From a virus, in IMG/VR virus record IMGVR_UViG_3300027909_000011, positions 1 to 47,070 of that record: a DNA stretch of 47,070 bases. One strand, 5' to 3'. The notes beneath the pieces are model-generated. The model searched no databases. It was not told the DNA's origin and saw only the letters and a program-made list of their open reading frames with translations. Each line of letters starts with the position of its first letter. Within the stretch, counting starts at the first letter, position 1. Shown here in pieces: positions 128 through 46,411 of the stretch. The translations under genes and the position numbers were made by a program.

Positions 128-835
128 CACAATGGCGTTAGCATAGGTAGCAATGCTTGAATATGCACCCTGCCTTCGATTCAGGGATTGCCTACTATAC
201 TTCAATGCACCTGGTCCAGCGTACCATGCCACAGCCGCGCCCCATGCACCATATCTAGAGAAATATTGCTGCAACTTGTATCGAGCGATTGCCTCCTGTA
301 ACTTAGGGCTTTGCATAAATTGCGCGGGGCTCACGTCGTACCCGAGAGCCTCATAATCCCAACCTCGTCCCGATCCTTTAATATTACCAGGCATGATCTG
401 GTACTTACCCATAGCACCAGAAGATCGGTTCCTGGCCCCGTAATTTCCTCCGGATTCACGTCCGGCAATAGCGTTAATGAAAGCGGCAAAACTTCCTTTT
501 GCCCCAGGGACGCTAATCCCGCTGTATAAATCTGGTCCTTGACCCTGACCGACCGAAACATTGAATCTCCTGCCCGCTTGTGCGTACATCCTTTCTTGGG
601 CAGCCCTTAACTCCGCAGCCTGTCTTTTGGCTCGTAACATAGACTCAAAGTCGGTTGCTTGACGACCGCCGGTTGTTATCTCATTAAAGCGCCGCCTGTA
701 GCCGGTCATATCTTGTGCAGGATTACGCTTATTCCCCAGCAAAAGAGCTTGAAATGCTCGTTGCCGTTCTTCGCGTTCTGTAGTTTTTTCCTGAGGAATA
801 TACCTTGGGTTAATGTAGGCCATTAGATGAACCAA
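110..835 (-). CDS. Virion-associated lytic transglycosylase (SLT-like lysozyme domain)
   Basis: 241-aa ORF. The C-terminal half carries GRESGGNYGARNRSSGAMGKYQIMPGN (catalytic Glu plus SGAxGxYQ, an SLT signature). It overlaps the upstream M23 gene by 13 bp. Its stop forms an ATGA overlap with the start of the 46649..47056 gene across the circular junction. Confidence 0.75.
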   Translation of the reverse strand: MVHLMAYINPRYIPQEKTTEREERQRAFQALLLGNKRNPAQDMTGYRRRFNEITTGGRQATDFESMLRAKRQAAELRAAQERMYAQAGRRFNVSVGQGQGPDLYSGISVPGAKGSFAAFINAIAGRESGGNYGARNRSSGAMGKYQIMPGNIKGSGRGWDYEALGYDVSPAQFMQSPKLQEAIARYKLQQYFSRYGAWGAAVAWYAGPGALKYSRQSLNRRQGAYSSIATYANAIVKRMGL

Positions 836-1422
836 CTTAATGGATTGACTGGTTGGTTATTGATCCATGTCTCGAAATGTAAGTGAGGACCAGTAGACCA
901 ACCAGTACTTCCTACATAACCAATAGGTGCACCGGCAGCAATACTTTGACCCGGTTTAACATTAAAACCAGACTGATGACCGAACATAAGAGACCGACCA
1001 CCACCAATATCCAGAATAGTCTGATTTCCGTAAATTTTATCCCAACGAGTGCTGCGAACTCTGCCAGCAGCAGGAGCATAAATAGTGGTGCCAGCAGGGG
1101 ATGCCCAATCAATACCAGTATGTGCGCTTTTATGACCTTTCCTATGAACCCCGTACGGAGAAGTGACTCGTAAATCACCCCTTAAAGGATACATAGATAA
1201 GAGTCCGCCAGGGAATCCTCCTTGAAGCCCACCTTGTCTCTGATAGTCTTGTGGTGGAATAGTAGCCGCGAACTCAATCATACGTTGTTGCTGCAACCGA
1301 AGATTTTCTAAGAAATCTCGCTTGATTTTATCCCTAGTTGAACGATTAAATTCAAATCCTGTTTGGCGCGGGCCTTCCTCAGAAATCGCCCTAAGGCGTT
1401 CGAGGTAATCAACGGCTGCCAT
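823..1422 (-). CDS. Peptidase M23 (LytM-type) peptidoglycan endopeptidase, virion-associated
   Basis: 199-aa ORF with HTGIDWASPAGTTIYAP (HxxxD) and GSTGWSTGPHLHFE (HxH) zinc motifs. It is translationally coupled to both neighbours. Confidence 0.8.
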   Translation of the reverse strand: MAAVDYLERLRAISEEGPRQTGFEFNRSTRDKIKRDFLENLRLQQQRMIEFAATIPPQDYQRQGGLQGGFPGGLLSMYPLRGDLRVTSPYGVHRKGHKSAHTGIDWASPAGTTIYAPAAGRVRSTRWDKIYGNQTILDIGGGRSLMFGHQSGFNVKPGQSIAAGAPIGYVGSTGWSTGPHLHFETWINNQPVNPLSWFI

Positions 1423-4400
1423 ACTGTTCCCTTTGCTTCTTACGTTCCTTAGCGCGCTGTTCCTTTAGATCAAATTCACCGCCCTTGATGAATCTTCCTG
1501 TATCCAGGATACCAGCCGCTGTCAAGAAGTTAATGATTCCCGCAGGGTTGTACGGTTTAGTCTCCTTACCTCGCAAATCCCCACCTTCTAGAAGACCAGT
1601 ACCAATTGCTCCTTGCGACAGACGGGATGCATTTGCAAGAATAGGGATGTTCTTATCTGCATATTGAGTATAATCCTCAATAGGTGCACCAGTCATAAAC
1701 TCAGTATCGAAACCTAGTTCCGCTGGGATTTTAGCAAAGGGAGTAACTGAGTTTCCAATTCCCTTAACCGGATTATTGAAGAAATCTTCCATAATATCGG
1801 TTTGGGGGAGTCCAGGATTAATAACACCATATCCAACTTCTTCTGGACTACGGGAAATGGCCCGAGCAAAGCCCGAAGTAGGCAGAATAGTAGGACCAAT
1901 AACGTTGCTTGAGAGCCAGTTGGGGAATAGTTGGTCGTCCGGCCACGGATCAGAGACACTTGAATCTATCCCTTGATACTCTTGAGCGGCGCTCATTCCC
2001 TTCGGATACATAATGAACTTGTGGGGCTTAAGTAGCATACCTTCGATAATAAGAGGAATGGCCTTGCGATTCCAAGAATAGAAGGGAATAACCCGTCTGA
2101 AATACCTACGCTCAGTCGGAGTTAGATCTAATCCATCAGGGTGAAACTTTCGAACCTGACCAGCAGCAGATTCAAATAGTTCCTCTAATGAGGTAACCTT
2201 CTTCGGGGGGTGTTCAAGTCGATAAATGTAGTGGGCAAGACGGAAGTAATGCTCACGACTCTCAGAAAATCCACGAGCAACCTTGGCACCCTTACCCTTT
2301 AGAGGAGCAAAAGGTCCAATCTTACCAGGGTGAAACTTTTCTGCTAACCTATCAAATGCAGTCTCTGTACCAGGAAGGTCTTCCACTACACTAGAGTGCG
2401 GGAATAGTCCATGACGGAAACCCATTTGGTAAACTTGATCAATACTAATTGGATAAGACTTACCACCAGCCTTACCAGTAGCAATAACCCTTGTACCCTT
2501 AGGTATCCTACCTTGGCTTTGCTTAGTAATTTGCTCGATAAGTTCCCGTTCTCGACCCTCACCAAGTAACTCACGGAAGGGCCTCATATCTTCTCCACCA
2601 AGATCAGAATACCTATGGCTATTAGCTTTAATTACTTGCCAAGCCTTAGAGTAGTAGATCGGGTTATTCAGCCCATCCATCCAGGAAAGGAATGAGTCAC
2701 CAAGACCATTCCTAACATGGTGGCTAGGAGCAAAGATAGTTACACCGGCCTTCCAAGTACGGAGAGCCATATCGTACACTTTGAGGAACTTCGAAGTAGC
2801 TAAAGGTTCAGAGAATTTATCAATACCTGTAGCCATTTTACCAATTTGAGGGGCGATATCCTTAGGGAAGAATAACCCATCAATAGCAGGGTGCATCGAA
2901 CTAACCTCGATATACCCATTCCTAGCCTTACGACTTCCCCATACTGCACCCAACTGAGCAAAGGCTGAATACTCTACCATCGCATTTTCTACAGCCTGCG
3001 TTAAGTTAAACGCAAACATGCGAAGGTCTTCCGGATTCTCAGGGCTGTATGATTTCCAACCTTGAAGAATCTCAGGACCAGTAAGCATAATCTTTTTTGA
3101 AGGATTTACCGGATCAGGAACCTTGTCCTCAAACTTGAAGTCCTTAATGCCCACAATACGCATGTGCTTATTAAGATGTGCAACATTCGTACCCGAACGA
3201 GCAATAGCTGTGTTACCTGCAAACTTGCTTGCTAACCCAGATTCCCCAAATAGGTTACCTAGCATCATCTGTAACTGTTCAACTTGCTGAGCATGTGCAG
3301 GATTAGTAGGAATAAACCCACGAACTTCATTCCAGAAGTCCATAGTCTCTTTTGGAGGAATAGCATTAAAGATACGAATAATATCGTGGGCACGAGTAGT
3401 AGCACTAGCCCTGCGAGCACCGATATGCTTCAAAACTAAGGGCCGTAAATCCTTATATCCCGCATTGGGCTTGATCCAAGATAATACGGTGCTAATAATT
3501 CCGCCCTCAGCGGCGGCACTTGCTCGCGCAACATCCGTAGCAGCAGTTCTAACGATTTGTCCGACTGACGTAGCACCCGATACAGGGCCAAATTCAGTCG
3601 TAAGGACATCAGCAGTATGTGCGGATGAAGTTTCAATTCTTGGAGCCTGAGCAGCACGGTCTCCACTCTTTCCTCCCGTAACCCCAGCAGCTAATCTAGT
3701 TTTACCCCTTTGAATAGTGAATTCTACAAGATTCGAAGGATTAACGGCCTGAGGAATCTCACGACGCAACTTATTAAGCATTTCATTCATTGCATCCCGA
3801 GTTTCGGGCATTGCTCCCGCAAATTGAGCCTTACTTTGCCGTGTAATCTGCTCAATAAAGTTTGCCTTGTTAACATCACTAATAGGCGCACCTTCAACGG
3901 TGTTAATCGCCCCGGCTGTAGCCTCAGTTACAGCCTTAGCCGCGTTAGCATCCTCAATAACCCTAGCAGCGTGATCCTTCACCATTAAAGGTGACCAATC
4001 AGTAGCCTCAATCGCGGCCTTTAGTTCTGGTTGCTTAGCAATCTGAGTTAATGCTGCTTTTTCGCCAACAATCGCACGAAGAATGACCGAGGGACTGACC
4101 TTCTTGGTCTTATCACCTAAAATTGCAGCCTGTGCAACCTCACGAGGTAATGTCTCAAGAACATCACTAAGACGTAAGTAAGGAGAGCCAGCCTTAAGTC
4201 CACCACGAGGCTTAAAAATATCACCCTTACGCTCAATCATGCTTTCTTCTGCGTGCCGGACTAATTGCACGTAACGATCAAAGATAGCAGATTGGAATTT
4301 CTCCGGAACTACCCCATAAGTTACCGGATTTGCTTGCAAAACTTGCTGGCGGGCAGGGCTCAGTAACTTATTAGCTACAGCCGACTGCGCTTGTGCGTTA

Positions 4401-5356
4401 TAATTCGAGATTTTAACCGCAGGATTGCCAATATCAGCCGCGATTTTAGCTACAGTGCGCTCCACAGCCTCTCTTGAAGCAGGGGCGAGTGGAAGTAAGT
4501 TCTTATTCGTTAAAAGATCAGTAGCCTCAGGTGACCCCTTAGCAAATTGGTCCAATACTTTCTCGGAATCAGAGGCAATATTAGCCCTCTGAATATCCGG
4601 ATACTTCTTTTCCAAGAATGACGGAAGATTCTGCTTACCAATTTCCGACATTTGCTGCTCGGCAGCGATCAAACCCTCCTGGCGAGGGCTCAGAACCGCC
4701 CCGGACTGGCCCACATCTGCCGCCTCCCGAACGACGGCCTCAGCAGCACCCTCAACCTCGTCCAGTTCTTGAGCACCCTTTTTAAGACCCTTGGCGGCTT
4801 TGATCGGACCCTTTACAGCACCAGCACCGACTAAATTAAGAGGATCAAGAGCAATATCGCCCAACAGACCATACACAACTGCGGACGTATTCTTCTTTTT
4901 CAGTTCCTTTTGTAGATATGCTTCGGCCTCAGGAGTTCCAGGACCTAATTGCTGGTATTCCTCACTCTCCTTAATATGCCTTTCATCGGCCGCCTGTAGC
5001 ACATCAATAAAGGAAGTCTTCTCTTTACCAGATAACCCTTCCCAAGCACCCTTAAGAGGATTCCCACCCTCATTAGCTAAAGTATCAACGGCCTCTGCTA
5101 CTGCATAATTAGGCCGAGAGAGTTTATCCAAAATCCAAAGACCAACACTCTTGGAATGCTGACCAAATGACTTATCTTCTTTGATTAAGGAAGGCGCGGG
5201 CTGAATATCAAAATCAGACCTCGCCTTCCTTAAGATCATGTTTGCAAAATCAGCCTGAGAAGCAGTAGGACGTGTGAGGGATGCAATTAAGTTAGTGGGC
5301 ATACGGGCAGACTGAATGGCGTTAAGCCGTGCGACGTAATCGTCAACATAGGTCAT
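1409..5356 (-). CDS. Large internal virion / ejection protein (T7 gp16-class by size and position)
   Basis: 1315-aa uninterrupted ORF, the largest in the window. It follows two smaller core-like proteins and precedes the virion lysins. No catalytic motif was recognised, so function is inferred from synteny only. Confidence 0.55.
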   Translation of the reverse strand: MTYVDDYVARLNAIQSARMPTNLIASLTRPTASQADFANMILRKARSDFDIQPAPSLIKEDKSFGQHSKSVGLWILDKLSRPNYAVAEAVDTLANEGGNPLKGAWEGLSGKEKTSFIDVLQAADERHIKESEEYQQLGPGTPEAEAYLQKELKKKNTSAVVYGLLGDIALDPLNLVGAGAVKGPIKAAKGLKKGAQELDEVEGAAEAVVREAADVGQSGAVLSPRQEGLIAAEQQMSEIGKQNLPSFLEKKYPDIQRANIASDSEKVLDQFAKGSPEATDLLTNKNLLPLAPASREAVERTVAKIAADIGNPAVKISNYNAQAQSAVANKLLSPARQQVLQANPVTYGVVPEKFQSAIFDRYVQLVRHAEESMIERKGDIFKPRGGLKAGSPYLRLSDVLETLPREVAQAAILGDKTKKVSPSVILRAIVGEKAALTQIAKQPELKAAIEATDWSPLMVKDHAARVIEDANAAKAVTEATAGAINTVEGAPISDVNKANFIEQITRQSKAQFAGAMPETRDAMNEMLNKLRREIPQAVNPSNLVEFTIQRGKTRLAAGVTGGKSGDRAAQAPRIETSSAHTADVLTTEFGPVSGATSVGQIVRTAATDVARASAAAEGGIISTVLSWIKPNAGYKDLRPLVLKHIGARRASATTRAHDIIRIFNAIPPKETMDFWNEVRGFIPTNPAHAQQVEQLQMMLGNLFGESGLASKFAGNTAIARSGTNVAHLNKHMRIVGIKDFKFEDKVPDPVNPSKKIMLTGPEILQGWKSYSPENPEDLRMFAFNLTQAVENAMVEYSAFAQLGAVWGSRKARNGYIEVSSMHPAIDGLFFPKDIAPQIGKMATGIDKFSEPLATSKFLKVYDMALRTWKAGVTIFAPSHHVRNGLGDSFLSWMDGLNNPIYYSKAWQVIKANSHRYSDLGGEDMRPFRELLGEGRERELIEQITKQSQGRIPKGTRVIATGKAGGKSYPISIDQVYQMGFRHGLFPHSSVVEDLPGTETAFDRLAEKFHPGKIGPFAPLKGKGAKVARGFSESREHYFRLAHYIYRLEHPPKKVTSLEELFESAAGQVRKFHPDGLDLTPTERRYFRRVIPFYSWNRKAIPLIIEGMLLKPHKFIMYPKGMSAAQEYQGIDSSVSDPWPDDQLFPNWLSSNVIGPTILPTSGFARAISRSPEEVGYGVINPGLPQTDIMEDFFNNPVKGIGNSVTPFAKIPAELGFDTEFMTGAPIEDYTQYADKNIPILANASRLSQGAIGTGLLEGGDLRGKETKPYNPAGIINFLTAAGILDTGRFIKGGEFDLKEQRAKERKKQREQYGSR

Positions 5357-6750
5357 TAACCTACTCCATAAAGCAACTTATATAGAATCTGTGTAGCCTG
5401 CATGAGAGCATTCTTGCTATTCGGGTCTAATTGCTGAGCCGATTGTGAATCAGCAATTAACCTAGCAAACAATGCCGGGTTCATTTCTACCCCTGCACTA
5501 TTTCCTTCGTTTCGACCCCAAATCTCAGGACGCTCATACATAGCACCTTGAATAACCGAAACAATATCCGATCCGCGACCAGGTGCTAGTTGCTCAGCAA
5601 AGGTAGCCGTCTCTTGCCAGGGATTAAGTTTTTGCTCACCTGCACTTGAGCCGGCACTACCTGCTCCACCACCCTGTAATTGAAGCAGTTTCATAGCTAA
5701 ATCAAGTTGTTGATTCTGAGCCTGAGAACTACGATCAAATAGTGCATTCTGATCAGAGAGATAATCCCGCTGTTGCTGATACCCAAATTGAGTATTTGCT
5801 ACATCACGTTGGTAGGCAGCATCAGCTAATTTAAGCATCAAATCATTAATAGACCCAGCCCTCTGGGACCTAACCCCTGTAAGATCAGTGTTAGATTGAG
5901 CGAGATAATCCTCTAACTGACGACCAATATCTTGACTCGACTCAATACCCTCAGCCCGAGTCGCATTAGCAATTGCTCGATCATAGTCCTGCTGAGCATT
6001 ACCTTGCATTGACATAGCAGCCTGCTGAGCTTGTTGCTCCTGCATTGACATTTGATTAGCAAATCGCATATCACCTTGCTGCTCAGTTAATTCCTCATTT
6101 AAGCCTAAAGACTCAATTCCGAGCCTTTTAGCCTCAGCCCTTTGAGCAGCAGCATCCCTAGCATATCCAGCCGCAATTTGATCACGCTGGTCTTCATACA
6201 GATTCTTAGACTGTGCTTGAGAAGTAGCGTACCTAGTCCTATCGGCTACAGCGCCACGATCCTCAACAGCGCCTAATTGATTATAGAGATTTCGAACAGT
6301 CGACTGACTCGTGGCAGCACGAGACCGAGTTGCCGATTGCTGAGCCAGAATCTGATTGATAATCGGATTAAATTGCTCATTCACGGCCGACATTGCTTGA
6401 TTCTTAAACCTATTAGGATCATAGGTAGGCAGTTGCTGAGGATTAAAGCGAGGCATTTGGGAGGTGCCCTGGGTAAATTGCCGCAACTGAGCAAGAATAG
6501 CCTGTAGAGGATCAACTTGAGGGAGTTGTGGTGTAAACTTCCCCGCTAAAGGACCTCCTGGATCATATTCTGAATAATGACGTGACGTAGGATAGTTAGG
6601 AGGTCCTTGAGGCGTAGGGGGAGAGTGCGTAGACCGTCCGCCTGAAAGGATATTTAACATATCCTGAATTTCATCACGAGTACGGATCAGGTCACGATCC
6701 CGCTCATTGATGTTAATATTCCTACTGCCGCGTTCACCAATGTTTGCCAT
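5356..6750 (-). CDS. Gln-rich internal virion protein (gp15-like position)
   Basis: 464-aa ORF, Q/A-rich and predicted helical. Start and stop are coupled to both neighbours (ATGA-type overlaps). Confidence 0.5.
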   Translation of the reverse strand: MANIGERGSRNININERDRDLIRTRDEIQDMLNILSGGRSTHSPPTPQGPPNYPTSRHYSEYDPGGPLAGKFTPQLPQVDPLQAILAQLRQFTQGTSQMPRFNPQQLPTYDPNRFKNQAMSAVNEQFNPIINQILAQQSATRSRAATSQSTVRNLYNQLGAVEDRGAVADRTRYATSQAQSKNLYEDQRDQIAAGYARDAAAQRAEAKRLGIESLGLNEELTEQQGDMRFANQMSMQEQQAQQAAMSMQGNAQQDYDRAIANATRAEGIESSQDIGRQLEDYLAQSNTDLTGVRSQRAGSINDLMLKLADAAYQRDVANTQFGYQQQRDYLSDQNALFDRSSQAQNQQLDLAMKLLQLQGGGAGSAGSSAGEQKLNPWQETATFAEQLAPGRGSDIVSVIQGAMYERPEIWGRNEGNSAGVEMNPALFARLIADSQSAQQLDPNSKNALMQATQILYKLLYGVG

Positions 6751-7454
6751 TAGATACCATACTTTTCCGTACGACGACGTAGAGCCTCAGCCCGAGCATT
6801 TTGAGACTGAGTACCTTGCTCATTACGGAATTTATTTAGATCATTTGCTAAGCCTTGAATGAAAGCAGTCCTTTGCTCACTCAAGTCACCATATTGATTT
6901 GCATATTGAGAGTTTAAGTCACCGAGACCTTGAGTATATAGGCTTGATTGTAACATTCCACGAGAGGCGAAGTCATTTCGAAGGTCTTCTGTAGCCTCGC
7001 CCTTAGCCAAACCAATATCACGGTACATGTTCTGGTAGTTAGTATTGTAATCACCACGAGATAGAGTCTGATCAGCATTAAAGTCAGAAAGAGCCTTAGC
7101 ATAGGCCGCTAATTGACGCTGATAGGTCGTGTCACCTTTAAGAAATGCATTAACATCCGGCACCATAGGCTTAGCCGGCTTCGGCGGTTGGACTGTCCTA
7201 GCCGTCGGAGGGGTAGAGCGACGAACAGAAGTAGAACGACGCCTACCACCTTCACGACTAACTACACGACGACGCCGGTAACCACGATTACCACCATCAT
7301 CATTACTACTCCTAGACCTACGACTCCTATAAATAGGAACTTGGCTCGCACGTTCAGGCTTTAACTTACGCCGAACCCTCGGCCTAGCCGTATTACGTCG
7401 CACAGTAGCAGGTGCTTGCCTATTACTAGCACCCGCAGAATCAATATCTGCCAT
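6750..7454 (-). CDS. Internal virion protein with an Arg-rich (protamine-like) N-terminal half
   Basis: 234-aa ORF. Residues about 15-95 are dominated by R/S/P runs (RRNTARPRVRRKLKPER...RRRRVVSREGGRRRSTSVRR). It sits in the gp14-like position. Confidence 0.5.
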   Translation of the reverse strand: MADIDSAGASNRQAPATVRRNTARPRVRRKLKPERASQVPIYRSRRSRSSNDDGGNRGYRRRRVVSREGGRRRSTSVRRSTPPTARTVQPPKPAKPMVPDVNAFLKGDTTYQRQLAAYAKALSDFNADQTLSRGDYNTNYQNMYRDIGLAKGEATEDLRNDFASRGMLQSSLYTQGLGDLNSQYANQYGDLSEQRTAFIQGLANDLNKFRNEQGTQSQNARAEALRRRTEKYGI

Positions 7455-7692: not shown

Positions 7693-9207
7693 TTATGTCA
7701 ATGACTTACTAACATGTTGCTTTGTGCCAATTAAGGTAGTAAAAGTAAAGAATCTCAAAGGTCCTGTCACATTCGTCCCATCGTAACTTAAACTAAGTTG
7801 AAAATTTATCTGCCTAAAACGTAGAGATTTCTGGAATTTGACAAATTTACGCATAGCAGACTGAGAACCAACTACTGTCTGAACGACAAATGGTACAGAC
7901 AATGGCTGATCCCAGGTATTTCCTGCAATACTACCCCACGTAAAAGCCGCCAAATCCCCCCAAGTTACAGAGAAATTGACTACAACAGGTTGCACAATAC
8001 CACTAATTAGTTTAGTAGTTGATACATCTGCACCCCACCACATAAGCCTCTTGTAACGATGGGGTACTCCATAATCATAGTTCTTAGTTTTAATAAGAAC
8101 AAAAATAGTTTCAGGATTCGATCCATCAATGATATCCCTCATACTATGGATATCATTAGAAGATGAATCTGCACTTGCCATAATATAGGTAGGAACAGCA
8201 TTCACTGTACCACGAATAGGAACGGCTACAGGAACACCGGGATACCTAATATCAGCATCCCATCGAGTCCATACTTTTGTTTTCAATCCAAATAAATATA
8301 ATCTATTAAAATATTTGACTAAAAGACGATCGCCGACCACAGCACAATAAGTAGGTGATACCCACGGGGCAGGTTGTGTGGCATCATAGAAAAGAGGAAC
8401 TTTGGCGTTTAATTTAGAAAAGTCATAGTTTACAACTTCATACACATTGTTCCGGTGAAGAACATATAATTGATTTTCATAGGCTGCAACACACCAACGA
8501 GAAGCAACACCAATACCATCTTTAATTTTACGAGTAATAGCATCGGCAGGGTCAGCATCGTAGGCTAATACATACGTAGAATCTTGCTTGAATAAAAGAA
8601 GGTTATCATTATAAACAACGATATCTAGTAACTTCTGCCCATCGCCCTTATTGATGTAAACACTAATAGGGAAAGATGAGAAGTTAGCAGGGGCCGAGCC
8701 CTTAAGCAGCGAAGCGTCAGATCCTGTTTTCTCCACATTAGGAACAATAAATAACCGTTCCTTATGAACTACCGCAGCACCACCACGAGGAATAGCAGCT
8801 ATGGTAGAATAGGTCAAAGAGTCGTTTAATGACCCTCCATCTGTAGCAGAATCAGAAGTAGCAATAATATAAGCAGTATTATCATACTGAACCATAGCAG
8901 TTGCTTTAAGGGTGCCTGTACCCCCAATTGCTGTCCATGCACCACTCTCATAAGACCAAAGTGAAGTAGAATTAATCCCAATGAGTCTAGTATGAGCATC
9001 AGTAATATACCAACCTAGCAATGTCATACCTACACCAGAGCCTGGACTGGCTAAATCAAAGAAGGGTGGGCGTGCAACATACGATCCATCAAGGTCTAAT
9101 TCTGCATTGACAACATCAAGTAATTCCGTATCCTGTAGCGCAGTAGGATCGGAAAGATGATTAATACCCCCAGCAAAAGGGCCAAGACGAATCGGCTCAC
9201 CAGGCAT
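7693..9207 (-). CDS. Tail tubular protein B / nozzle-like protein
   Basis: 504-aa ORF. The N-terminus FAGGINHLSDPTALQDTELLDVVNAELDLDGSYVARPPF follows the T7 gp12 pattern KGGISQQPD...N......G..KRPP. It lies directly downstream of the adaptor-like gene. Confidence 0.55.
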   Translation of the reverse strand: MPGEPIRLGPFAGGINHLSDPTALQDTELLDVVNAELDLDGSYVARPPFFDLASPGSGVGMTLLGWYITDAHTRLIGINSTSLWSYESGAWTAIGGTGTLKATAMVQYDNTAYIIATSDSATDGGSLNDSLTYSTIAAIPRGGAAVVHKERLFIVPNVEKTGSDASLLKGSAPANFSSFPISVYINKGDGQKLLDIVVYNDNLLLFKQDSTYVLAYDADPADAITRKIKDGIGVASRWCVAAYENQLYVLHRNNVYEVVNYDFSKLNAKVPLFYDATQPAPWVSPTYCAVVGDRLLVKYFNRLYLFGLKTKVWTRWDADIRYPGVPVAVPIRGTVNAVPTYIMASADSSSNDIHSMRDIIDGSNPETIFVLIKTKNYDYGVPHRYKRLMWWGADVSTTKLISGIVQPVVVNFSVTWGDLAAFTWGSIAGNTWDQPLSVPFVVQTVVGSQSAMRKFVKFQKSLRFRQINFQLSLSYDGTNVTGPLRFFTFTTLIGTKQHVSKSLT

Positions 9208-9839
9208 TACATATCATCCAATAACACTGTGATGGTCGGATACGTTTCCCGCTCTACAAATTCTTCCCTGGACTTCAAGATGTCTAATCCATCATTGAAT
9301 TGAGATTGCTTCTGATTTGAGGCATCCCAATCCTCATCCGTCTCGTATGCCTGCTGTAGCACATACTCAACAACTCGATTATGGTATTCCTCAGAAAATG
9401 GGATAGTATCAGATAATGAATCAATAGCAGCGGGACGTTGGATATAGAGAATCTTAATCCCATTAGTAATACTCGTATCTGGTTTAGGATATAGCGTAAA
9501 TTCAGTACCCCAACGAGTCCACATATAAGGAGTACCAGTCTGAATTTCCTCAGGATCGTTAGCATTTACATAGGTGTCATATTCAGTACGCTTCATAAAA
9601 GCAATTTTTAGATTATCATAGTAGATAGTCTGCATTGCAAGCATATCAACAGGAAAGGGATAGGTATTGTCCCCAGCCACTGCATTTATAAGAGCCGATG
9701 CTTGAAGAAGACTATTCTTGACGGCAATTTCGCGTACGCCATCGTTGATCCAACGCATGATGTCGTCTTGAGTAATTTGAACCGATGCCTCGTCGCCAAA
9801 TTGACGAAGCACGCGAGTTACAACATCTTGGACATTCAT
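9207..9839 (-). CDS. Head-tail adaptor (tail tubular A / gp11-like position)
   Basis: 210-aa ORF sharing an ATGA overlap with the nozzle-like gene. The call rests on size and position. The C-terminal IPFSEEYHNRVVEYVLQQAY resembles adaptor families. Confidence 0.4.
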   Translation of the reverse strand: MNVQDVVTRVLRQFGDEASVQITQDDIMRWINDGVREIAVKNSLLQASALINAVAGDNTYPFPVDMLAMQTIYYDNLKIAFMKRTEYDTYVNANDPEEIQTGTPYMWTRWGTEFTLYPKPDTSITNGIKILYIQRPAAIDSLSDTIPFSEEYHNRVVEYVLQQAYETDEDWDASNQKQSQFNDGLDILKSREEFVERETYPTITVLLDDM

Positions 9840-12856: not shown

Positions 12857-12872
12857 TTGATTCTCCAAATAC

Positions 12873-12911: not shown

Positions 12912-12927
12912 ATGAGGGGCAGATCGT

Positions 12928-25635: not shown

Positions 25636-25669
25636 AAACCATCACAATGAACCAAACGATATGAAGTTG

Positions 25670-33698: not shown

Positions 33699-33788
33699 TC
33701 GTCACCTTCTACCAGTGACCTTCCAAGTCGGGAAACTGGTAAAAGCTCTCACTTGGCTACAGGGGCAACAAGCATTTTAGGGATAAAA

Positions 33789-39005: not shown

Positions 39006-39412
39006 GAACCACTGTAGAGTTCTAACAGGACGGGACTGGCGGCCCAGATGCTCCTGTTAGATCAAGAGGGTGGACTAGCTAAATACAAGGAAGGACTGGG
39101 CCCCGTCGATTTGCCGGGAATAAGCCACGCAGTCACTTAGCCAGGTTGCTAGTCAGTAAATGAAGTACTCTGGGTACAAACTACCAGCCCTCTCTTTAAT
39201 TCAATAGAGGAACGCCATCGCAGGGCGGTTTACGGTTCCTACCTGCGATGGGGTTGGAGATAATGATTTTGCCAACTGCCATTATCTCCAACGGCTACAG
39301 GGCTTTAGGATAGGACTTCCCGGAAACTGTGAAATAAGGGATACGTCGGGACCTAAAGTACTGCCCTTGGTGGATTCGACCCCACCTAAAGGTCACTGGC
39401 CCTGTAGCACAA
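39006..39412 (+). ncRNA. Candidate structured non-coding RNA or leader region upstream of tRNA-Leu
   Basis: 407 nt without an ORF. It has perfect stems of 10 bp (39021-30/39052-61), 10 bp (39215-24/39242-51) and 13 bp (39253-65/39280-92). A long-range stem (39294-39309 with 39385-39408) is built on the GGCTACAGGG/CCCTGTAGC pair. Confidence 0.3.
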
Positions 39413-40380: not shown

Positions 40381-41334
40381 ATGCCTTGGTATCCAGGTGC
40401 TATAATTAAAAAGGTTACCAGGTTCAACCCTGGTGGCTCTAACGCATCGAAGCGTAAAAAGGGACGTGGAGTATGTAACCACGTCGCGGTCTCCGAGGCA
40501 GCCTCTTTATTCAATTACTTTAATCAACCTGGTAACCCCTGTAGCCATTTCTATGTACGTAGAGACGGCACCGTAGAACAGTATGTAGATACTGATTATG
40601 TCGCCCCTTGTAATTTGGATGGTAACCCTACTCTTTTGAGTATTGAGACTCAAGGAGGAGTTAATTCTCCCGAGACTGAGCCTTGGACCTCTGCCCAATT
40701 AAATTCTCAAATCAATCTTCACATTTGGCTACAGGGGGTCGACGGATTCCCAATTCAGTTAATGACCGATTCAAGGCCAGAGACTAAGGGTATTGGCTGG
40801 CATGAGTTAGGTATAGAACCTCACGTAGTGAGTGGCGGGGAACTCTGGTCCAGTGCCTATGGCAAGATTTGTCCGGGAAACAAGAAGATTGAACAAATCA
40901 AAACTGTCATCTATCCAGGAGTAAAGGAAGGCGGGGCAGATATGGACCTCACAGAGCAAAATCTAGATGACATCGCCCTAAGGGTTTGGAACTTCCTTAT
41001 TGCTGGCGAACAAGCTAAGACTCTTATGATGCGCCTTAATCCTGGACCAGATGCATTTGATGCCAGTGTCAGAGAGTCATCCTGGACTAAGGTAACTAGT
41101 TCACCTGTAGATGGCAGTGACATTAGCGTTCTTCAACTATTGCGTCTAGCCTATTCTGAGGCTCGTGCTGCGGCTAATGAACCACCTGTTACCATTGACT
41201 ATGCAGAACTCTCCACAATGATTTCTGAACAACTCGCACAAGACCTCGTCATTCCTCCTGTCACTCAAGAACAGATCGAATCCTCTCTCATTGCCGTCTT
41301 CAATAAGACGGGTTTTGTCGTCAACCCTGCTTGA
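40381..41334 (+). CDS. Endolysin, N-acetylmuramoyl-L-alanine amidase (Amidase_2/PGRP-type) with a C-terminal domain
   Basis: 317-aa ORF. NHVAVSE...CSHFYVRRDGTVEQYVD...LSIETQGG...GIGWHELG...KICPGNKKI fits the zinc amidase_2 pattern. Confidence 0.7.
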   Translation: MPWYPGAIIKKVTRFNPGGSNASKRKKGRGVCNHVAVSEAASLFNYFNQPGNPCSHFYVRRDGTVEQYVDTDYVAPCNLDGNPTLLSIETQGGVNSPETEPWTSAQLNSQINLHIWLQGVDGFPIQLMTDSRPETKGIGWHELGIEPHVVSGGELWSSAYGKICPGNKKIEQIKTVIYPGVKEGGADMDLTEQNLDDIALRVWNFLIAGEQAKTLMMRLNPGPDAFDASVRESSWTKVTSSPVDGSDISVLQLLRLAYSEARAAANEPPVTIDYAELSTMISEQLAQDLVIPPVTQEQIESSLIAVFNKTGFVVNPA

Positions 41335-41404: not shown

Positions 41405-43186
41405 TTGACAGATGGCGTGATTAGTTTACGCCCGGAAGTCGAGTTGGATGAATTCTTTGAGTTTATGTGGGGTAAGAACTCTGGCTTTGTATATGCCCCA
41501 ATTAAATCGCCAGAAAGCGAGGACAAAGAAGGTGAGTGGGGAACCTTCTTTTTTCAATGGCCAGAGCAACGCACAGAACTCGTCCAGCACGTACTGACGT
41601 ACACTCCTGTAGCCGAGTGTTATTTTGGTCCAGCATTGTATCGTTCTCCAACGGAGGTATCAAAGGAGAATATCTATGGGTCCCAAGTATTATGGGCTGA
41701 ATTCGATGGTAACGCCCCTAAACCTGATGTCATCGGTGACAAGATTCCCCATCCCTCCCTCCGAATCAAATCGTCTAACGAGGGCCATGAGCATTTCTAC
41801 TGGCATCTTGACGATTTTCAGTCCGACCAAGAATTTATCGAAAGTACGAATCGAGCTATTACCTATACACTACATGCCGATTCGAGCGGTTGGGATTCCA
41901 CCCAAATATTACGGCCGCCTGGGACGAAAAATCATAAGCGTGGTAAGTTTGTCAGGGTTGTCTCACAAAACAGTGCTGAATATACAAAAGATCACTTCTC
42001 ACGACTTACTGTTCCCAAACAACTCGCTAAAGACTCCATCGAACTTGATGAAGTACCCGATGTATTATCAGTAGTAGCCAAGTATAAGTGGCCGACAGAA
42101 GAGTTCTTATTCTTCCGTAAGAATGAAATGGCAGTAGGGACTCGGTCCTCTGCCTTGATGCGCCTTGCCTACGTCTGTGCTGAACTGCGCATGTCTGACG
42201 AGGAAGCATTTTCGGTGCTATACAACGCCGATGAGCGGTGGCAAAAATTTGTAGGACGTAGGGACAGGGACAAGCGACTTCTTGACCTAATCAATAGAGC
42301 ACGGCACAAGTATCCACTTGATCCCGAAATAGTAGTAGATGATTTACAGGTATTGAGTTGGAATGAACTAAAAGAACAGGAAGTTTACGTAGACTGGTTA
42401 ATCCCTGGTATACTACAGCGACAGGGGCTATTGCTAATCTCTGGTAAGCCTGGGGTTGGCAAGACTCAGTTAATGATCCAAATGCTTATGTGCCAGGCTA
42501 TAGGTAAGCCAATGTTCCATTGGGAGATTACCCAACCTCGTAAGGTAATGTTCGTTTCTATGGAGATGAATGTTGTTGAGTTAAAGGTGATCCACCAAGA
42601 AATGGATTCGGTACTAACTGATGACGAACGAGCCTTACTCCAAGAAAACTTTAGATTCGTACCTATTGGACAGAGCCTCTTATTCGATTCAGATACTGAC
42701 AGAGCCAAAATACTACGAATGCTTGATCGCTACAAACCGGAGATTTCATCTTTCGACTCACTATCTAAGACTACTAAGGCGGCGCTCGATGAAACCAACT
42801 CTAAAGCTGTCATGGATTTTGCTGACGAAATGCGATTCAACTACGACACCACAGTCGGACTCATCCACCATAATAGAAAAGCCCAAGTAGGAAATCGCCG
42901 GCCCAAAGAACTAGACGACATCTATGGATCATTCTATCTAACCGCCAATCCTACCACAGTAATGAATATGTGGGCCAACGACAAGTCAATGGATATTGAA
43001 CTCAGTTTTCCTAAAGTCCGTCTCGCAAAACAACCAAAGAAACTTCACATTATGCGACAGCCCCGCGGATTAGTATTCGAGGAGATTGCCCCGAATGCTC
43101 TGATTAGGGAGAAGCCTGTAGATGACGGACCCAATGAGGGTGATCAACAAGAGCCCCCTTCTGGAAAAGCCAATCTCCAACTCTAA
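41405..43186 (+). CDS. Bifunctional AEP primase-polymerase / RepA-DnaB-like helicase
   Basis: 593-aa ORF with a TTG start after AGGGGAG. AEP motifs are LWAEFDG, SNEGHEHFYWHL and ILRPPGTKNHK. The C-terminal part has Walker A SGKPGVGKT, FVSMEM and LIHHNRK. Confidence 0.8.
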   Translation: MTDGVISLRPEVELDEFFEFMWGKNSGFVYAPIKSPESEDKEGEWGTFFFQWPEQRTELVQHVLTYTPVAECYFGPALYRSPTEVSKENIYGSQVLWAEFDGNAPKPDVIGDKIPHPSLRIKSSNEGHEHFYWHLDDFQSDQEFIESTNRAITYTLHADSSGWDSTQILRPPGTKNHKRGKFVRVVSQNSAEYTKDHFSRLTVPKQLAKDSIELDEVPDVLSVVAKYKWPTEEFLFFRKNEMAVGTRSSALMRLAYVCAELRMSDEEAFSVLYNADERWQKFVGRRDRDKRLLDLINRARHKYPLDPEIVVDDLQVLSWNELKEQEVYVDWLIPGILQRQGLLLISGKPGVGKTQLMIQMLMCQAIGKPMFHWEITQPRKVMFVSMEMNVVELKVIHQEMDSVLTDDERALLQENFRFVPIGQSLLFDSDTDRAKILRMLDRYKPEISSFDSLSKTTKAALDETNSKAVMDFADEMRFNYDTTVGLIHHNRKAQVGNRRPKELDDIYGSFYLTANPTTVMNMWANDKSMDIELSFPKVRLAKQPKKLHIMRQPRGLVFEEIAPNALIREKPVDDGPNEGDQQEPPSGKANLQL

Positions 43187-43217
43187 AGAGGACAGTGAAT
43201 TCCAAATCTTTCTGGGA

Positions 43218-44924
43218 ATGGCACGCTTACCCCAAGTTAAGCGGCTACACGTTGACACGGAGTCCAACGGGCAGAGCCTCAAGGATGGGCGTGGATATAC
43301 AATCGGTACCTCTATTGACTTTGCTGTTGATGAATCCGTTGCGTACTCGTACTATTTTCCATTCCGGCATAAAATCAACAATATATCTCTATCGTACAGG
43401 GATGAACTAAAAGAACTAATTGAGAAAGGGGGCAAGAAGATTGTTTGTCATCATACTCGTCATGATATGTTGGCTTTGCGTTCTCTTGGTATTACTTGCC
43501 CTTTGGACTTTGATGATACTATGCTTCTCGCGCACTCAGTCGATGAGAACAAACTCTCCTATAGACTCGATTACGTCGCCAAAGAACTCGGATTACCAGG
43601 TAAAGCCAGAGACAAGCATTTTGACCAAGCCATTAAACTCCTTGGTTGGGACGGAATGCCACCTAGTAGCATGGGCGAATATGCGGCCACCGACGCCACC
43701 CTTCTCCGACCTATATACGACCACTATAAACCCATCTATGACAGTGAGGATCAAACCAACGGAGAACTTTGGGAATACGATAAACGCTTTATGCTATTAC
43801 TCAACAACATTGAATTAACAGGAGCCAAGGTTGATTTAGAGTTAGCCGCTAGGGAACTCGAACGTGGGGAATCCAGAATGAAGGAAATCTCCAAAGAACT
43901 CGGACTCAACCCTGGCTCTAGGAATGACCTTGAAGAACTACTAATTACCAAACTGGATTTACCCATTGTCAAGAAATCGAAAAAGACGGATAATCCATCC
44001 TTCGATAAGAAGGCTATGGAAGTTTATGAAGGTTATCTTGAGAAACTCAACTCTCCTGTAGCACAGCTAGTTTTGGAGTATCGTGGCTACCAAAAAGCGA
44101 CATCTTCGTATTGGAAGGCGTATCTCAATCATGTCTCACCGGATGGCAGGATTAGACCAAATTTCAATTTACATCGTACGGTCACCCACCGTTTATCGTG
44201 TGATACACCTAACACACAGCAAATCCCCCGAATCTCGACTAAGCCCTGGCATGGTAGCGTCAAGCAAGGCTTTATTGCGGAGGATGGGTACGTCCTTATC
44301 GAAGCGGATTACTCGCAACTAGAATTTCGCTTAGGGGCAGCATATGCGCAACAAACGGATCTTATCGAGATATTCAACGATCCCGACCGCGACATTTTTA
44401 CTGAAATGTCGATCGACCTGGGAATGCTTAGACACGATACAAAAACTCTCAACTATACCATTCAGTTTGGTGGGGGAGTCACGCGGATCAGTGAAGCGTT
44501 TAACATTCCAAAGGAGAACGCTAAGTTCATCAGGGACAATTACTTTAATACTTACACAGGATTCCGTAAGATTATCCAAATGGCGTCCCAGACATGTCAA
44601 GGTCAGGGATTTGTACGAACATGGACCGGCAGGCGACGCCACTTTGAAGATCCATACGGAGAAGCTCATAAAGCATTTAATGCTGTTATCCAAGGAGGCG
44701 CTGCTGATATAGTTAAACGACAAATGATTCGTCTTGCCGATGCGATTGGTTGGGATAATCCTGAGTGCAGGATGATTCTCCAAGTACATGACTCAATTGT
44801 TTTTGAGATTATCAAGGGCAAAGTTGAGTACTACAGCCGTATTATCAAGAAAGTCCTAGAAGACGTTGTCCCTGACTTTGGTGTTGCATTCAAAGTTGAT
44901 GTTCACGAATGGGGTAAGGAATAA
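43218..44924 (+). CDS. DNA polymerase, family A (Pol I-like) with a 3'-5' exonuclease domain
   Basis: Exonuclease motifs are HVDTES and YAATDA. Polymerase motifs are A LIEADYSQLEFRL, B RHDTKTLNYTIQFGGG and C ILQVHDSIVFE. The start is uncertain: ATG 43218, or in-frame ATG 43134 overlapping the primase gene. Confidence 0.85.
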   Translation: MARLPQVKRLHVDTESNGQSLKDGRGYTIGTSIDFAVDESVAYSYYFPFRHKINNISLSYRDELKELIEKGGKKIVCHHTRHDMLALRSLGITCPLDFDDTMLLAHSVDENKLSYRLDYVAKELGLPGKARDKHFDQAIKLLGWDGMPPSSMGEYAATDATLLRPIYDHYKPIYDSEDQTNGELWEYDKRFMLLLNNIELTGAKVDLELAARELERGESRMKEISKELGLNPGSRNDLEELLITKLDLPIVKKSKKTDNPSFDKKAMEVYEGYLEKLNSPVAQLVLEYRGYQKATSSYWKAYLNHVSPDGRIRPNFNLHRTVTHRLSCDTPNTQQIPRISTKPWHGSVKQGFIAEDGYVLIEADYSQLEFRLGAAYAQQTDLIEIFNDPDRDIFTEMSIDLGMLRHDTKTLNYTIQFGGGVTRISEAFNIPKENAKFIRDNYFNTYTGFRKIIQMASQTCQGQGFVRTWTGRRRHFEDPYGEAHKAFNAVIQGGAADIVKRQMIRLADAIGWDNPECRMILQVHDSIVFEIIKGKVEYYSRIIKKVLEDVVPDFGVAFKVDVHEWGKE

Positions 44925-45139
44925 TGGGATTTGGCACTCAGCAAGAGATTGAGCAAGAGTTTCTCACTAAGCCTTGGAAGTATATTCCAGATGATTTAGT
45001 CGGAGGCACATGTATTGTACTTGAAGAAGAAACTAAAACCCCAGCTACAGGAGCCTACATAGTTGTTAACTTTATCTACCCTGCGGTCGCCGCTCATGTA
45101 TGCACAATCCATAACGAAAGCCTAATCGATGTCCCGTAA
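44924..45139 (+). CDS. Hypothetical protein
   Basis: 71-aa ORF whose start forms a TAATG overlap with the polymerase stop. Confidence 0.5.
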   Translation: MGFGTQQEIEQEFLTKPWKYIPDDLVGGTCIVLEEETKTPATGAYIVVNFIYPAVAAHVCTIHNESLIDVP

Positions 45140-45290: not shown

Positions 45291-45712
45291 CGTATATCTC
45301 ATTCGATCCTGGCAAGGCTACAGGGTGGGCAAAATGGAATGAGGCCGGCGATTTCATTGACATGGGTACCGCCTGGGATCATGACCAACTTTGTGACTTG
45401 TTAGAAGACCTACTATTGAAACCTCATGGTTTTATTTATGAGAGTTTTACTCTCGATCCCGACACACCGCAGGGTGGCTCAGATATGCCAGCCTCGATAG
45501 CCATAGGCATTATCATGGCTCATGGCCATTTCAATCGATGTGAAATGATCAAACAACCATCCTCAATCAAGGAGACAGCAGAGAAGTGGGGTGTATCAAC
45601 TAAGGGAATGAGCCACGATAAAACTCACGTATTGGACGCCTACAATCACGGAATCTACTATTTCGTATCTCAGGGTATCAAGGAAATAGACCTTAGGGGT
45701 GTGAAACTGTGA
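45272..45712 (+). CDS. RuvC-like Holliday junction resolvase
   Basis: 146-aa ORF. It has YISFDPGKATGWAKW (first catalytic Asp), IYESF (Glu) and THVLDAYNHG (the C-terminal HxxDA). Confidence 0.65.
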   Translation: MANKELAYISFDPGKATGWAKWNEAGDFIDMGTAWDHDQLCDLLEDLLLKPHGFIYESFTLDPDTPQGGSDMPASIAIGIIMAHGHFNRCEMIKQPSSIKETAEKWGVSTKGMSHDKTHVLDAYNHGIYYFVSQGIKEIDLRGVKL

Positions 45713-46209
45713 GGGAAAGCACCAAAAACGCTCGACACGATGCCGCTATCGCCGAACTATTAGGCATCAGCGTAGAAGAAGTTCAATCTCAGAGAATTAA
45801 AGAAGAAAGGGATGCAAAAGCCCGGGAAGCCCAAGCCGTCTTACTTTTCCTTGAGCACCCGGACAAATTTATCAGCAAGTTTTGTGATAAGTGCCACCAA
45901 ATCTTTATGACATCTTATCAGTTTGTATCCGTATGTTCCTCTAAGTGCCGAATTGCTGCTCTGGCAGATGTTGGCATTGATTGGAACCCTATGAGGACAG
46001 CGGACGAAAGATGGAAGCGTGCACAGATTCCTGTTGATTACACGATTCCACCTGATGCTTTGGCGATTCTTATGCAATTAGCCCAAGATCAGACTCAGCG
46101 GCCTCCTTCCGAGAACGGTCAAGGTAATCAACAATTGAAAATCGACTCTCGTACAGACCTAGAGATTTGGCTTGACGAATTAGATCCGCTTGAAGTTGAG
46201 GAGAATTAG
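45709..46209 (+). CDS. Hypothetical protein with a Cys motif
   Basis: 166-aa ORF with a GTG start forming a GTGA overlap. It contains CDKCHQ...CSSKC. Its last 140 nt overlap the convergent whiB ORF. Confidence 0.5.
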   Translation: MRESTKNARHDAAIAELLGISVEEVQSQRIKEERDAKAREAQAVLLFLEHPDKFISKFCDKCHQIFMTSYQFVSVCSSKCRIAALADVGIDWNPMRTADERWKRAQIPVDYTIPPDALAILMQLAQDQTQRPPSENGQGNQQLKIDSRTDLEIWLDELDPLEVEEN

Positions 46210-46411
46210 ATATCATTGAATGACGCTCTTTGAATGTGGTTCCACCCCAGATACCCCATTCATCATAAATCAGAGCATACTGAAAGCACTCGCTCGCTAC
46301 AGGGCATGTATTACAGATACGCTTAGCACGTTTTGGGTTTGTCTTAAAGGGCTCAGAAAATTCAGGTTCACGACAAACTGCTTCTAACCGCCACTCCTGA
46401 ATGGCTCTCAT
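46070..46411 (-). CDS. whiB: WhiB-family Fe-S transcription factor
   Basis: Four Cys (C...CNTCPVASEC) followed by GIWGGTTFKER. Start moved to ATG 46411 (MRAIQEW...), because upstream codons are encoded by the 16-bp palindrome. There is a roughly 46-aa C-terminal extension. Confidence 0.8.
   Translation of the reverse strand: MRAIQEWRLEAVCREPEFSEPFKTNPKRAKRICNTCPVASECFQYALIYDEWGIWGGTTFKERHSMISNSPQLQADLIRQAKSLGLYESRFSIVDYLDRSRKEAAESDLGLIA

Follow-up and report, generated by a model that had tools for sequence, protein, structure and literature searches.

The stretch of viral DNA analysed here, hereafter the window, comprises nucleotides (nt) 1 to 47,070 of IMG/VR record IMGVR_UViG_3300027909_000011 and carries, dispersed throughout, many copies of a short word, the 9-mer GGCTACAGG (reverse complement CCTGTAGCC) with its 7-nt core GCTACAG. 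The first 127 nt of the window are identical to its last 127 nt (46944-47070), indicating a complete circular assembly of a genome of approximately 46,943 bp; the relatives Jasmine and Shocker have direct terminal repeats. The genome is that of a podophage, with two divergent arms and a GC content of 45%. Recognized structural genes encode a P22/SU10-type portal, an SU10-type capsid protein and the large terminase (TerL), and other recognized products are an SNF2 helicase, RNase H, a PD-(D/E)XK exonuclease, an AAA_24 ATPase, a single-stranded DNA-binding protein (SSB), an amidase, an AAA_25 primase/helicase and a family A DNA polymerase (PolA).

A DNA-level search of deposited phages returned no close match to the window. 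In gene order, the window is syntenic with the podophages Jasmine and Adat (Arthrobacter), DS1 (Cellulosimicrobium) and Shocker (Microbacterium), whose portal proteins are approximately 40% identical to its own. Given this synteny with Jasminevirus and the Micrococcales hosts of every cultured relative, the window phage probably infects an actinobacterium, as a preliminary description made from the letters alone had supposed. Two tRNA genes, tRNA-Leu(taa) at 39413-39496 and tRNA-Gln(ttg) at 40157-40229, decode A-ending codons, which fits a phage of 45% GC in a presumably GC-rich host. Hundreds of related contigs were found in metagenome assemblies and in a set of viral operational taxonomic units, their source samples being probably mostly soil; a single-protein search of viral contigs with PolA gave no matches.

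Over-representation of the word at the nucleotide level

An automated recount on both strands found the 9-mer 20 times in the window, in the number and at exactly the coordinates listed in the preliminary description, and the core GCTACAG 51 times (about 49 had been counted by eye) against 4.25 expected. In dinucleotide shuffles of the window the 9-mer averaged 0.30 copies with a maximum of 3, and a third-order Markov model predicted 0.5 copies of the 9-mer and 5.9 of the 7-mer. The enrichment of the 9-mer ranges accordingly from about 40-fold (Markov) to about 65-fold (shuffle), in keeping with the 50-fold excess first proposed, and GGCTACAGG together with the words overlapping it are by far the commonest 8-, 9- and 10-mers of the window.

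When synonymous codons were permuted within each gene, a control that the preliminary description had named as a possible refutation, the excess survived: 14.6 copies of GCTACAG and 4.9 of the 9-mer were obtained, against 51 and 20 observed, and these totals count 7 intergenic copies of the 7-mer and 4 of the 9-mer that the shuffle cannot move. For intragenic copies alone, the figures are approximately 44 against 7.5 expected for GCTACAG and 16 against 1 for the 9-mer. Codon usage and protein repeats are thereby ruled out as the cause. A constrained shuffle, run as a synonymous-codon Markov chain in which swaps creating AGCT or any of 43 avoided hexamers were rejected, left 15.3 copies of GCTACAG and 5.9 of the 9-mer. 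Since neither the codon-preserving nor the avoidance-constrained shuffle reproduces the observed counts, our data support selection on nucleotides and not on protein.

The word uses all five stop-free reading frames, the sixth holding TAG, and the core is divided 25/26 between plus and minus strands, with no switch between the arms, and 28/23 between sense and antisense relative to transcription; both the use of different frames and the lack of strand or arm bias had been noticed at first inspection. Most copies (86%) lie inside coding sequence, and 14% touch intergenic DNA (20% for the full 9-mer). Given the balanced orientation and the predominance of intragenic copies, a promoter, start-associated or terminator role for all copies was rejected, and the general role in RNA processing or termination that had been suggested is unsupported for the same balance of orientation. 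A nicking-target role was likewise set aside, as nicks at close opposite-strand copies would break the genome. The flanks are conserved in the manner originally stated, the extended form CTGTAGCCGA occurring 10 times and the 15-mer TTCGGCTACAGGGGG twice; the extended consensus in the window reads t-c-G-GCTACAG-G-g-g, and the information content pooled over the clade describes G-CTACAG-G with soft G flanks.

Dialects of the word in related phages

Enrichment in CCTGTAGC extends to all close relatives of the window, those with a portal at least 57% identical, and a pool of non-redundant clade sequence amounting to 247 kb contained GCTACAGG 201 times against 11.9 expected. Single-mismatch variants of GCTACAGG in the same pool stand, restriction neighbours excepted, at 0.6-1.7 times expectation; as such variants are undepleted, we rejected a model in which biased repair turns near-matches into the word (of the type proposed for HIP1 and very short patch repair). 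Other members of the group carry words of their own: CCCACAG in Jasmine (47 observed, 3.3 expected) and Adat (44 observed, 3.0 expected), GCGACAG in DS1 (47 observed, 7.4 expected), CCTACAG in the uncultured phage MW202795 (47 observed, 5.6 expected) and TTTACAG, with the full word CCTTTACAG, in Shocker (45 observed, 0.3 expected), the last an especially striking case of an AT-rich word in a 63% GC genome. When the six complete genomes were cross-tabulated, each contained 44-51 copies of its own 7-mer and 0-14 copies, that is background, of the words of the others. The part shared across dialects is ACAG(G), whereas the 2-4 preceding bases are lineage-specific. The own-word copy number is near-constant in the window, L177, L178, L179, L180 and L185 (51, 47, 44, 47, 45 and 47, respectively), at GC contents of 44-63%.

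A broader sample consisted of 68 uncultured viral contigs of at least 9 kb and 36-64% GC, picked solely by conserved motifs of the primase domain. An NNACAG hexamer reached a -log10P of at least 4 in 48 of these (CTACAG in 30, CGACAG in 15, CCACAG in 2 and TTACAG in 1), and most of the remaining contigs show the same words at 2-2.5-fold. The dialects cluster on the primase tree, and CTACAGG is common to family members ranging from 37% to 61% GC. The same pipeline detected no family word in the control sequences, namely the phages Gordon, SorJuana and T7, word-less relatives and a megaplasmid. The top 8-mers of the distant relatives L065, L067 and L089 (CCAGTAGC, CCAGTTGC and CACCGCCA) were discarded as candidate words, being clustered in one gene and derived from collagen-like or Gly/Pro-rich repeats. 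SorJuana (L182, KU160666), an unrelated phage growing on the host of Jasmine, has a dispersed word of its own, GGCACAC(C), with 41 copies (6 expected) that fall into 27 one-kb bins, so that the phenomenon may reach beyond the Jasminevirus-type family; it encodes PolA, a DUF3987-type primase and a Cas4-like exonuclease.

The sites themselves are conserved. Jasmine and Adat share 91% identity, and of 42 CCCACAG sites 37 have survived unchanged between them, compared with 62% of all 7-mers (P = 1.5e-4); for the 10-nt flanks of the sites, conservation equals the genome average. In comparisons at approximately 70% identity, 5 of 10 sites were kept against a background of 9.7% (P = 0.0014), and 7 of 17 against 19%; even so, the majority of sites differ between lineages, and at homologous positions relatives show substitutions and no indels (e.g. 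GCTACTG or GCCACTG for GCTACAG). The sites are thus under purifying selection and at the same time turned over between lineages and, as they are conserved above background yet mostly relocated, it is density and not position that is maintained. In Shocker, whose genes can encode the word only at a high cost, 42% of copies touch the non-coding 5% of the genome (14% of copies in the window), as expected if the phage needs a certain number of sites and puts them where the cost is lowest.

Taken with a probability that we put at roughly 0.8, and for the most part observed directly, our reading is that GGCTACAGG is this lineage's dialect of a recognition word intrinsic to a large family of ~45-kb actinobacterial podophages (Jasminevirus and relatives). 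Such a word varies in its 5' part, keeps ACAG(G) at its 3' end, occurs in 44-51 copies at about one per kb on both strands, in and between genes, is set by the phage lineage and not by the host, and accompanies a replication and recombination module. Genome-wide over-represented recognition words are a known kind of element: cells have Chi, uptake sequences, FtsK-orienting polar sequences (KOPS) and HIP1, and phages are known to borrow Chi or to use longer, oriented, intergenic stoperators. The difference in the present case is that a phage family maintains its own short word, at a near-constant 44-51 copies in six complete genomes. What is new is a word encoded and maintained by a phage family, with heritable dialects, that pays for itself within coding sequence and is linked to a particular replication module built around a RepB'-like primase-helicase. 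The preliminary description knew of no element with this sequence, and neither the word nor the phenomenon is described in anything that our literature searches (on the word sequence, Jasminevirus, Jasmine and Shocker) turned up; the Jasmine genome paper (PMC5513430) is silent on the word. The question lends itself to direct testing, since Jasmine, Adat and Shocker have been brought into culture on standard SEA-PHAGES strains. In addition, searching metagenomes for the word offers an easy way of recognizing this abundant group of soil phages and the sublineages within it.

The replication module and candidate readers of the word

Some contigs share the structural module of the family (portal 46-51% identical) but lack the dispersed word. 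One such relative, rebuilt from overlapping loci to 43.5 of its 45.1 kb, has homologues of the terminase, portal (48% identical) and capsid proteins, and in these 43.5 kb no homologue was found of the AAA_25 primase-helicase, PolA, the PD-(D/E)XK exonuclease or the AAA_24 ATPase; a D5_N/DUF5906/Pox_D5 primase-helicase stands in place of the AAA_25 enzyme. Gordon, which has no word, encodes a DUF5906-type primase/polymerase. That the word-less relative is without the replication and recombination genes indicates that the word travels with that module. The presence of the word also tracks the family primase, as judged from 48 of the 68 primase-selected contigs and from the word-less relative with its D5-type enzyme, the whole module co-varying.

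By sequence, the N-terminal 312 residues of the primase-helicase match nothing in Pfam or the PDB; they contain motifs resembling those of archaeo-eukaryotic primases (AEP), namely EFDGN, S..GHEH.YW and D.SGWD.TQVLRPPGT.NHK. An AlphaFold model of this part (mean predicted local distance difference test, pLDDT, 88) comprises a catalytic domain followed by a helix bundle, and a fold search with the model gave as best match RepB' of RSF1010 (3h20, E 1.4e-9), including its complex with initiator DNA, and also matched the AEP domain of the cyanophage S-2L PrimPol (6zp9). Orthologues of the protein have weak Prim-Pol and RepB_primase Pfam matches. Judging from the predicted structure, the enzyme would be an AEP primase of the RepB' type fused to an AAA_25/DnaB-like helicase. 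In an exploratory comparison uncorrected for phylogeny, residue 282 of the helix bundle is Phe in 28 and Tyr in 4 of the 32 CT-dialect sequences and Tyr in 10 and Phe in none of the CG-dialect sequences. With the same lack of phylogenetic correction, this is the strongest dialect-linked column among five replication proteins (z 17, against at most 9.3 elsewhere), and columns above z 5 make up 6.1% of the helix bundle and 1.6% of the catalytic core. We regard this covariation as a lead, not as proof.

The explanation that we favour, tentatively and with a probability of about 0.35-0.4, is that the word is the template recognition site of the family's primase-helicase and that its copies are dispersed priming sites. 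The enzyme would start primers only at the word, which would then be needed on both strands at roughly the spacing of Okazaki fragments (about 23-26 copies per strand, or one every 2 kb). Changes of dialect would go hand in hand with changes in the helix bundle of the primase, and in scarce non-coding DNA two inverted copies would be packed into a hairpin that probably serves as a terminator too. Were this so, a replicative primase could impose a sequence code on a whole genome, which would explain how such enzymes discriminate phage from host DNA.

Among known enzymes, RepB' initiates only at single-strand initiation (ssi) sites, and the pRN1 primase reads GTG via its helix bundle. Primer synthesis by sequence-specific AEP primases needs a defined template sequence of up to 8 nt, and the primase-polymerase-helicase of phage NrS-1 needs an 8-nt template recognition sequence (PMC7102993). 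The window primase resembles RSF1010 RepB' (ssiA/ssiB) in its architecture of catalytic domain and helix bundle, and NrS-1 in the fusion of the primase domain to a helicase, although the NrS-1 helicase resembles the AAA+ helicases E1 and SV40 T-antigen (PMC7102993) whereas that of the window is AAA_25/DnaB-like. A further difference is that the words of RepB', pRN1 ORF904 (GTG) and NrS-1 occur once or twice per replicon, at origins, while the window has about 50 copies on both strands and the specificity of its enzyme is a prediction.

Several observations weigh against a priming role. The whole replication module co-occurs with the word, so that the association cannot single out one gene, and the covariation comparison, uncorrected for phylogeny, holds only 10 CG-dialect sequences. 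The strand switch expected of lagging-strand sites around a single bidirectional origin is missing from the window. The NrS-1 word is present in just two copies, as an origin, and a genome-wide priming code is without known precedent. In T7, gp4 primes the lagging strand at the pentamers GGGTC, TGGTC and GTGTC, which agree in their 3' part and vary in their 5' part. These pentamers are short enough to occur by chance and are only 1.1-1.6-fold enriched in the T7 genome, which has no signature word; we therefore discarded T7 as a precedent for the enrichment of primase sites. Primers read off the conserved ACAG end would begin with a pyrimidine unless initiation were internal. Finally, spacing in the window is more even than random (coefficient of variation 0.72, P about 0.009), but this evenness is weak and inconsistent, being marginal in Jasmine and Adat and absent from DS1 and several relatives, and it was dropped as a general property.

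Slightly more doubtful is the extension of the priming role to a code that the phage writes for itself, in which the lineage's 7-9-nt primase word (dialects NNN-ACAGG) would be written about 46 times into both strands and would co-evolve with the helix bundle, for instance through the F/Y switch at residue 282. If true, replication would be limited to DNA carrying the lineage's own word, amounting to discrimination of self from non-self and possibly to a recombination barrier between lineages.

A different reader, which we consider unlikely, would be another phage protein that binds double-stranded DNA, such as the XRE-type helix-turn-helix (HTH) protein acting as a monomer, in coating or organizing the genome or in global, stoperator-like regulation of transcription. 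An asymmetric site of 7-9 bp suits a monomeric HTH, orientation independence suits recognition of duplex DNA, the HTH protein is kept at the same position in relatives, and several copies of the word lie 12-25 nt upstream of start codons. Stoperators lie for the most part between genes, follow the direction of transcription and belong with a lysogeny repressor. Those of Cluster A mycobacteriophages are phage-intrinsic, asymmetric words in dozens of copies (about 24-36) per ~50-kb actinophage genome, with lineage variants and a phage-encoded reader (PMC6550527, PMC9283540). At 13-14 bp (PMC9283540), however, they are longer than the 7-9 bp of the window word, which is mostly intragenic and unoriented and belongs to apparently lytic phages. 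Neither an integrase, nor an immunity cassette, nor a repressor other than this HTH protein was recognized in the window. Moreover, the word goes with the replication module, whereas the HTH gene sits in the structural arm.

Somewhat less probable again is a Chi-like signal that tames a helicase-nuclease, either the host AdnAB/RecBCD or the phage PD-(D/E)XK exonuclease, thus protecting replicating or restricted phage DNA and promoting recombination-dependent replication. To our knowledge, no Chi has been described for actinobacterial AdnAB. In phages LLS, P1 and MD8, Chi is the commonest octamer, at about 1 per 1-2 kb, selected and with shifting positions (PMC12315714). LLS has 23 sites (1 per 1.86 kb) and P1 has 50 (1 per 1.9 kb), with an overlapping runner-up octamer as found here (PMC12315714; PMC3784561). 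The length (7-8 nt) and density of the window word fit this pattern, the word co-occurs with the exonuclease/AAA_24 module, and the phage is under heavy restriction pressure. Nevertheless, phage Chi is the host's own and strongly oriented (20/23 in LLS, 32/32 in MD8), in contrast to the 25/26 split of the window; the modest strand biases of Jasmine (14/33) and Shocker (29/16) run in opposite directions. The Chi-enriched phages are without a recombination module of their own, whereas the window has the exonuclease, the AAA_24 ATPase and SSB. Unrelated phages of the same hosts and an Arthrobacter-type plasmid show no enrichment, the use of CTACAGG from 37% to 61% GC speaks against a host signal, and the AT-rich CCTTTACAG would be odd as the Chi of a high-GC Microbacterium.

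It appears very improbable that the phage picked up the word from a host in which it is iterated genome-wide, in the manner of a DNA uptake sequence or of a HIP1-like or repetitive extragenic palindromic (REP)-like sequence, an origin that the preliminary description had allowed. The likeness is considerable, for the DNA uptake sequence (DUS) dialects of Neisseria, the uptake signal sequences (USS) of Pasteurellaceae and HIP1 are words of 8-12 nt present about once per kb on both strands, in all coding frames, in inverted-pair terminators and in lineage dialects. Unlike these properties of cellular genomes, the word was absent both from the cellular DNA examined and from other phages that share these hosts. 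The hairpin form GGCTACAGGG-N3-33-CCCTGTAGCC was looked for in viral, genome and metagenome collections. Among 185,579 species genomes (one per species) it was found at 47 scattered, unrelated loci, and among 241 million metagenome records every word-dense hairpin contig was a relative of the window phage. Neither scan returned a cellular contig combining the hairpin form with high word density, single copies in host chromosomes being uncounted. Gordon and SorJuana, which grow on Jasmine's Arthrobacter strain, have 3 copies of CCCACAG each (3.7 and 5.5 expected), TTTACAG is missing from 17 kb of BonaeVitae, which like Shocker infects M. paraoxydans, 50 kb of the Paenarthrobacter megaplasmid pTC1 contain 5 copies of CCCACAG (8.6 expected), and 8 kb of Arthrobacter chromosome showed no enrichment of CCCACAG. 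As the dense hits were all phage relatives, the same-host phages and megaplasmid were without the word and CTACAGG spans 37-61% GC, a host-wide element is unlikely, host chromosomes themselves being uncounted; the word follows instead the phage replication module.

A cyanobacterial host and HIP1 were excluded, GCGATCGC occurring only twice in the window. A mobile element of the REP or miniature inverted-repeat (MITE) type does not agree with 86% of copies being single intragenic words that differ from relatives by substitutions without indels. Some hits of the hairpin scan were rejected individually, L130 being a eukaryotic copia retroelement and L020 and L009 unrelated REP-like families. In L020 (positions 1195-2004 of a contig from a Patescibacteria metagenome-assembled genome, MAG), two identical hairpins GAGGCTACAGGGTGTCACCCTGTAGCCTC flank one minus-strand gene in a REP/RAYT-like arrangement unrelated to the phage word. 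L009 and L049 (both from Pseudomonas karstica) and L043 (an Acetobacteraceae MAG) contain local REP-like families with 6-11 9-mers per 8 kb at 58-61% GC; these repeats are chance look-alikes that share a 10-mer in hairpin form.

The window phage shows an extreme avoidance of restriction-type words. AGCT occurs 98 times against 384 expected; AGGCCT, CCATGG, GGATCC, CTCGAG, GAGCTC, GCTAGC and CACGTG are absent; GAGATC, CCTAGG, ACTGGG and CACCTC are nearly so; and three of the four words of the type CTNCAG are, counting both strands, close to eliminated (CTGCAG 2 against 27 expected, CTGAAG 1 against 33, CTGGAG 2 against 25). Jasmine, Adat, DS1 and Shocker each avoid a different, overlapping set of restriction-type words. 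Although the deficit of about 80 in the three CTNCAG words is comparable to the surplus of about 46 in CTACAG (65 observed, 19 expected), the notion that the word is a by-product of avoidance or mutation bias, with CTACAG as the sink left by the loss of CTGCAG, CTTCAG and CTCCAG, is hardly credible, since the constrained shuffle leaves the excess of the 7-mer and 9-mer unexplained, G precedes CTACAG in 51 of 65 cases, the relative L123 tolerates CTTCAG yet shows the highest word density, the dialects CCCACAG and TTTACAG are not neighbours of avoided sites, and single-mismatch variants of the word are generally undepleted. Avoidance may add slightly to the excess of the 6-mer; for the 7-9-mer it is largely refuted.

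Distribution of the copies and word-bearing hairpins

The copies of the word in the window and the genes discussed above are located in the following table.

Table 1. Word copies, word-bearing hairpins and candidate genes in the window (ORF, open reading frame)
Feature	Position	Strand	Context
full 9-mer GGCTACAGG	695..703	-	in ORF 110-835
full 9-mer	2826..2834	-	in ORF 1409-5356
core GCTACAG	3916..3922	-	
core GCTACAG	4374..4380	+	
core GCTACAG	4449..4455	+	
core GCTACAG	4994..5000	-	
core GCTACAG	6245..6251	+	
core GCTACAG	6989..6995	-	
full 9-mer	8224..8232	+	core at same position in 7 of 10 aligned relatives
core GCTACAG	8841..8847	-	
core GCTACAG	9133..9139	-	
core GCTACAG	9354..9360	-	
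core GCTACAG	10922..10928	+	
core GCTACAG	11988..11994	-	
hairpin, two inverted full words (12878+, 12898-)	12868..12916	-	directly 3' of major capsid gene
core GCTACAG	14477..14483	+	
core GCTACAG	15890..15896	-	in portal gene
core GCTACAG	18096..18102	-	
two direct full 9-mers (18352, 18375)	18352..18383	+	spacer between TerL and ORF 17794-18339
core GCTACAG	19960..19966	-	14 nt upstream of TerL start codon
core GCTACAG	20514..20520	-	
core GCTACAG	21298..21304	+	
XRE-family HTH protein	21482..22084	-	alternative candidate reader
full 9-mer	22101..22109	+	just upstream of XRE-HTH gene start
core GCTACAG	24271..24277	+	divergent intergenic region
full 9-mer	24804..24812	-	
hairpin, full 9-mer at 25601 in stem, CTACAGGG in opposite arm	25583..25646	+	3' of gene 24744-25580
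core GCTACAG	26824..26830	-	
core GCTACAG	27665..27671	-	
core GCTACAG	28666..28672	+	
core GCTACAG	29761..29767	+	
core GCTACAG	30028..30034	+	
core GCTACAG	31144..31150	+	in SNF2 helicase gene
core GCTACAG	31204..31210	+	in SNF2 helicase gene
core GCTACAG	33315..33321	-	
three full words (33654+, 33690-, 33755+)	33654..33769	+	spacer before RNase H gene
core GCTACAG	34819..34825	-	
full 9-mer	35479..35487	-	
PD-(D/E)XK exonuclease	36673-37671	+	own recombination module, co-occurs with word
AAA_24 ATPase	37664-38527	+	own recombination module, co-occurs with word
full 9-mer	37677..37685	+	
full 9-mer	39293..39301	+	intergenic
core GCTACAG	39402..39408	-	just upstream of tRNA-Leu
full 9-mer	40538..40546	-	
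full 9-mer	40727..40735	+	
primase-helicase (predicted AEP and helix bundle N-terminal; AAA_25/DnaB-like C-terminal)	41405..43186	+	candidate reader
full 9-mer	41606..41614	-	inside primase-helicase gene
family A DNA polymerase	43122..44924	+	replication module, co-occurs with word
core GCTACAG	44056..44062	-	in PolA gene
core GCTACAG	45044..45050	+	
full 9-mer	45316..45324	+	
core GCTACAG	46296..46302	+	

The highly conserved major capsid (12928-14121) and large terminase (18393-19946) genes contain no copy of GCTACAG, and the capsid gene of relatives contains at most one core copy.

Intergenic inverted pairs had been described as forming hairpins, and three strong stems were indeed recovered, these being the only terminator-like hairpins of the window. 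The hairpin at 12868-12916, with perfect arms of 15 nt and a folding free energy (dG) of -32.7 kcal/mol (z -7.3), has a homologous counterpart in the relative L001 and is a probable terminator or RNA-stabilizing stem. The second, at 25583-25646, has a dG of -34.9 kcal/mol (z -7.4). The third spans 33678-33775 (dG -47.1 kcal/mol, z -6.7), and an alternative pairing of 33654 with 33690 gives -22.9 kcal/mol (z -2.4); the copy at 33690 can thus pair with either neighbour, forming two mutually exclusive hairpins upstream of the RNase H gene, which could act as a switch or an origin-like structure. The RNase H match begins at residue 105 of a long ORF. The direct pair at 18352/18375 does not fold into a hairpin. 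As inverted word pairs are incidental in the cultured relatives, the hairpins look like a secondary use of the word, accommodating two sites and a terminator in scarce non-coding DNA, and not like its primary function.

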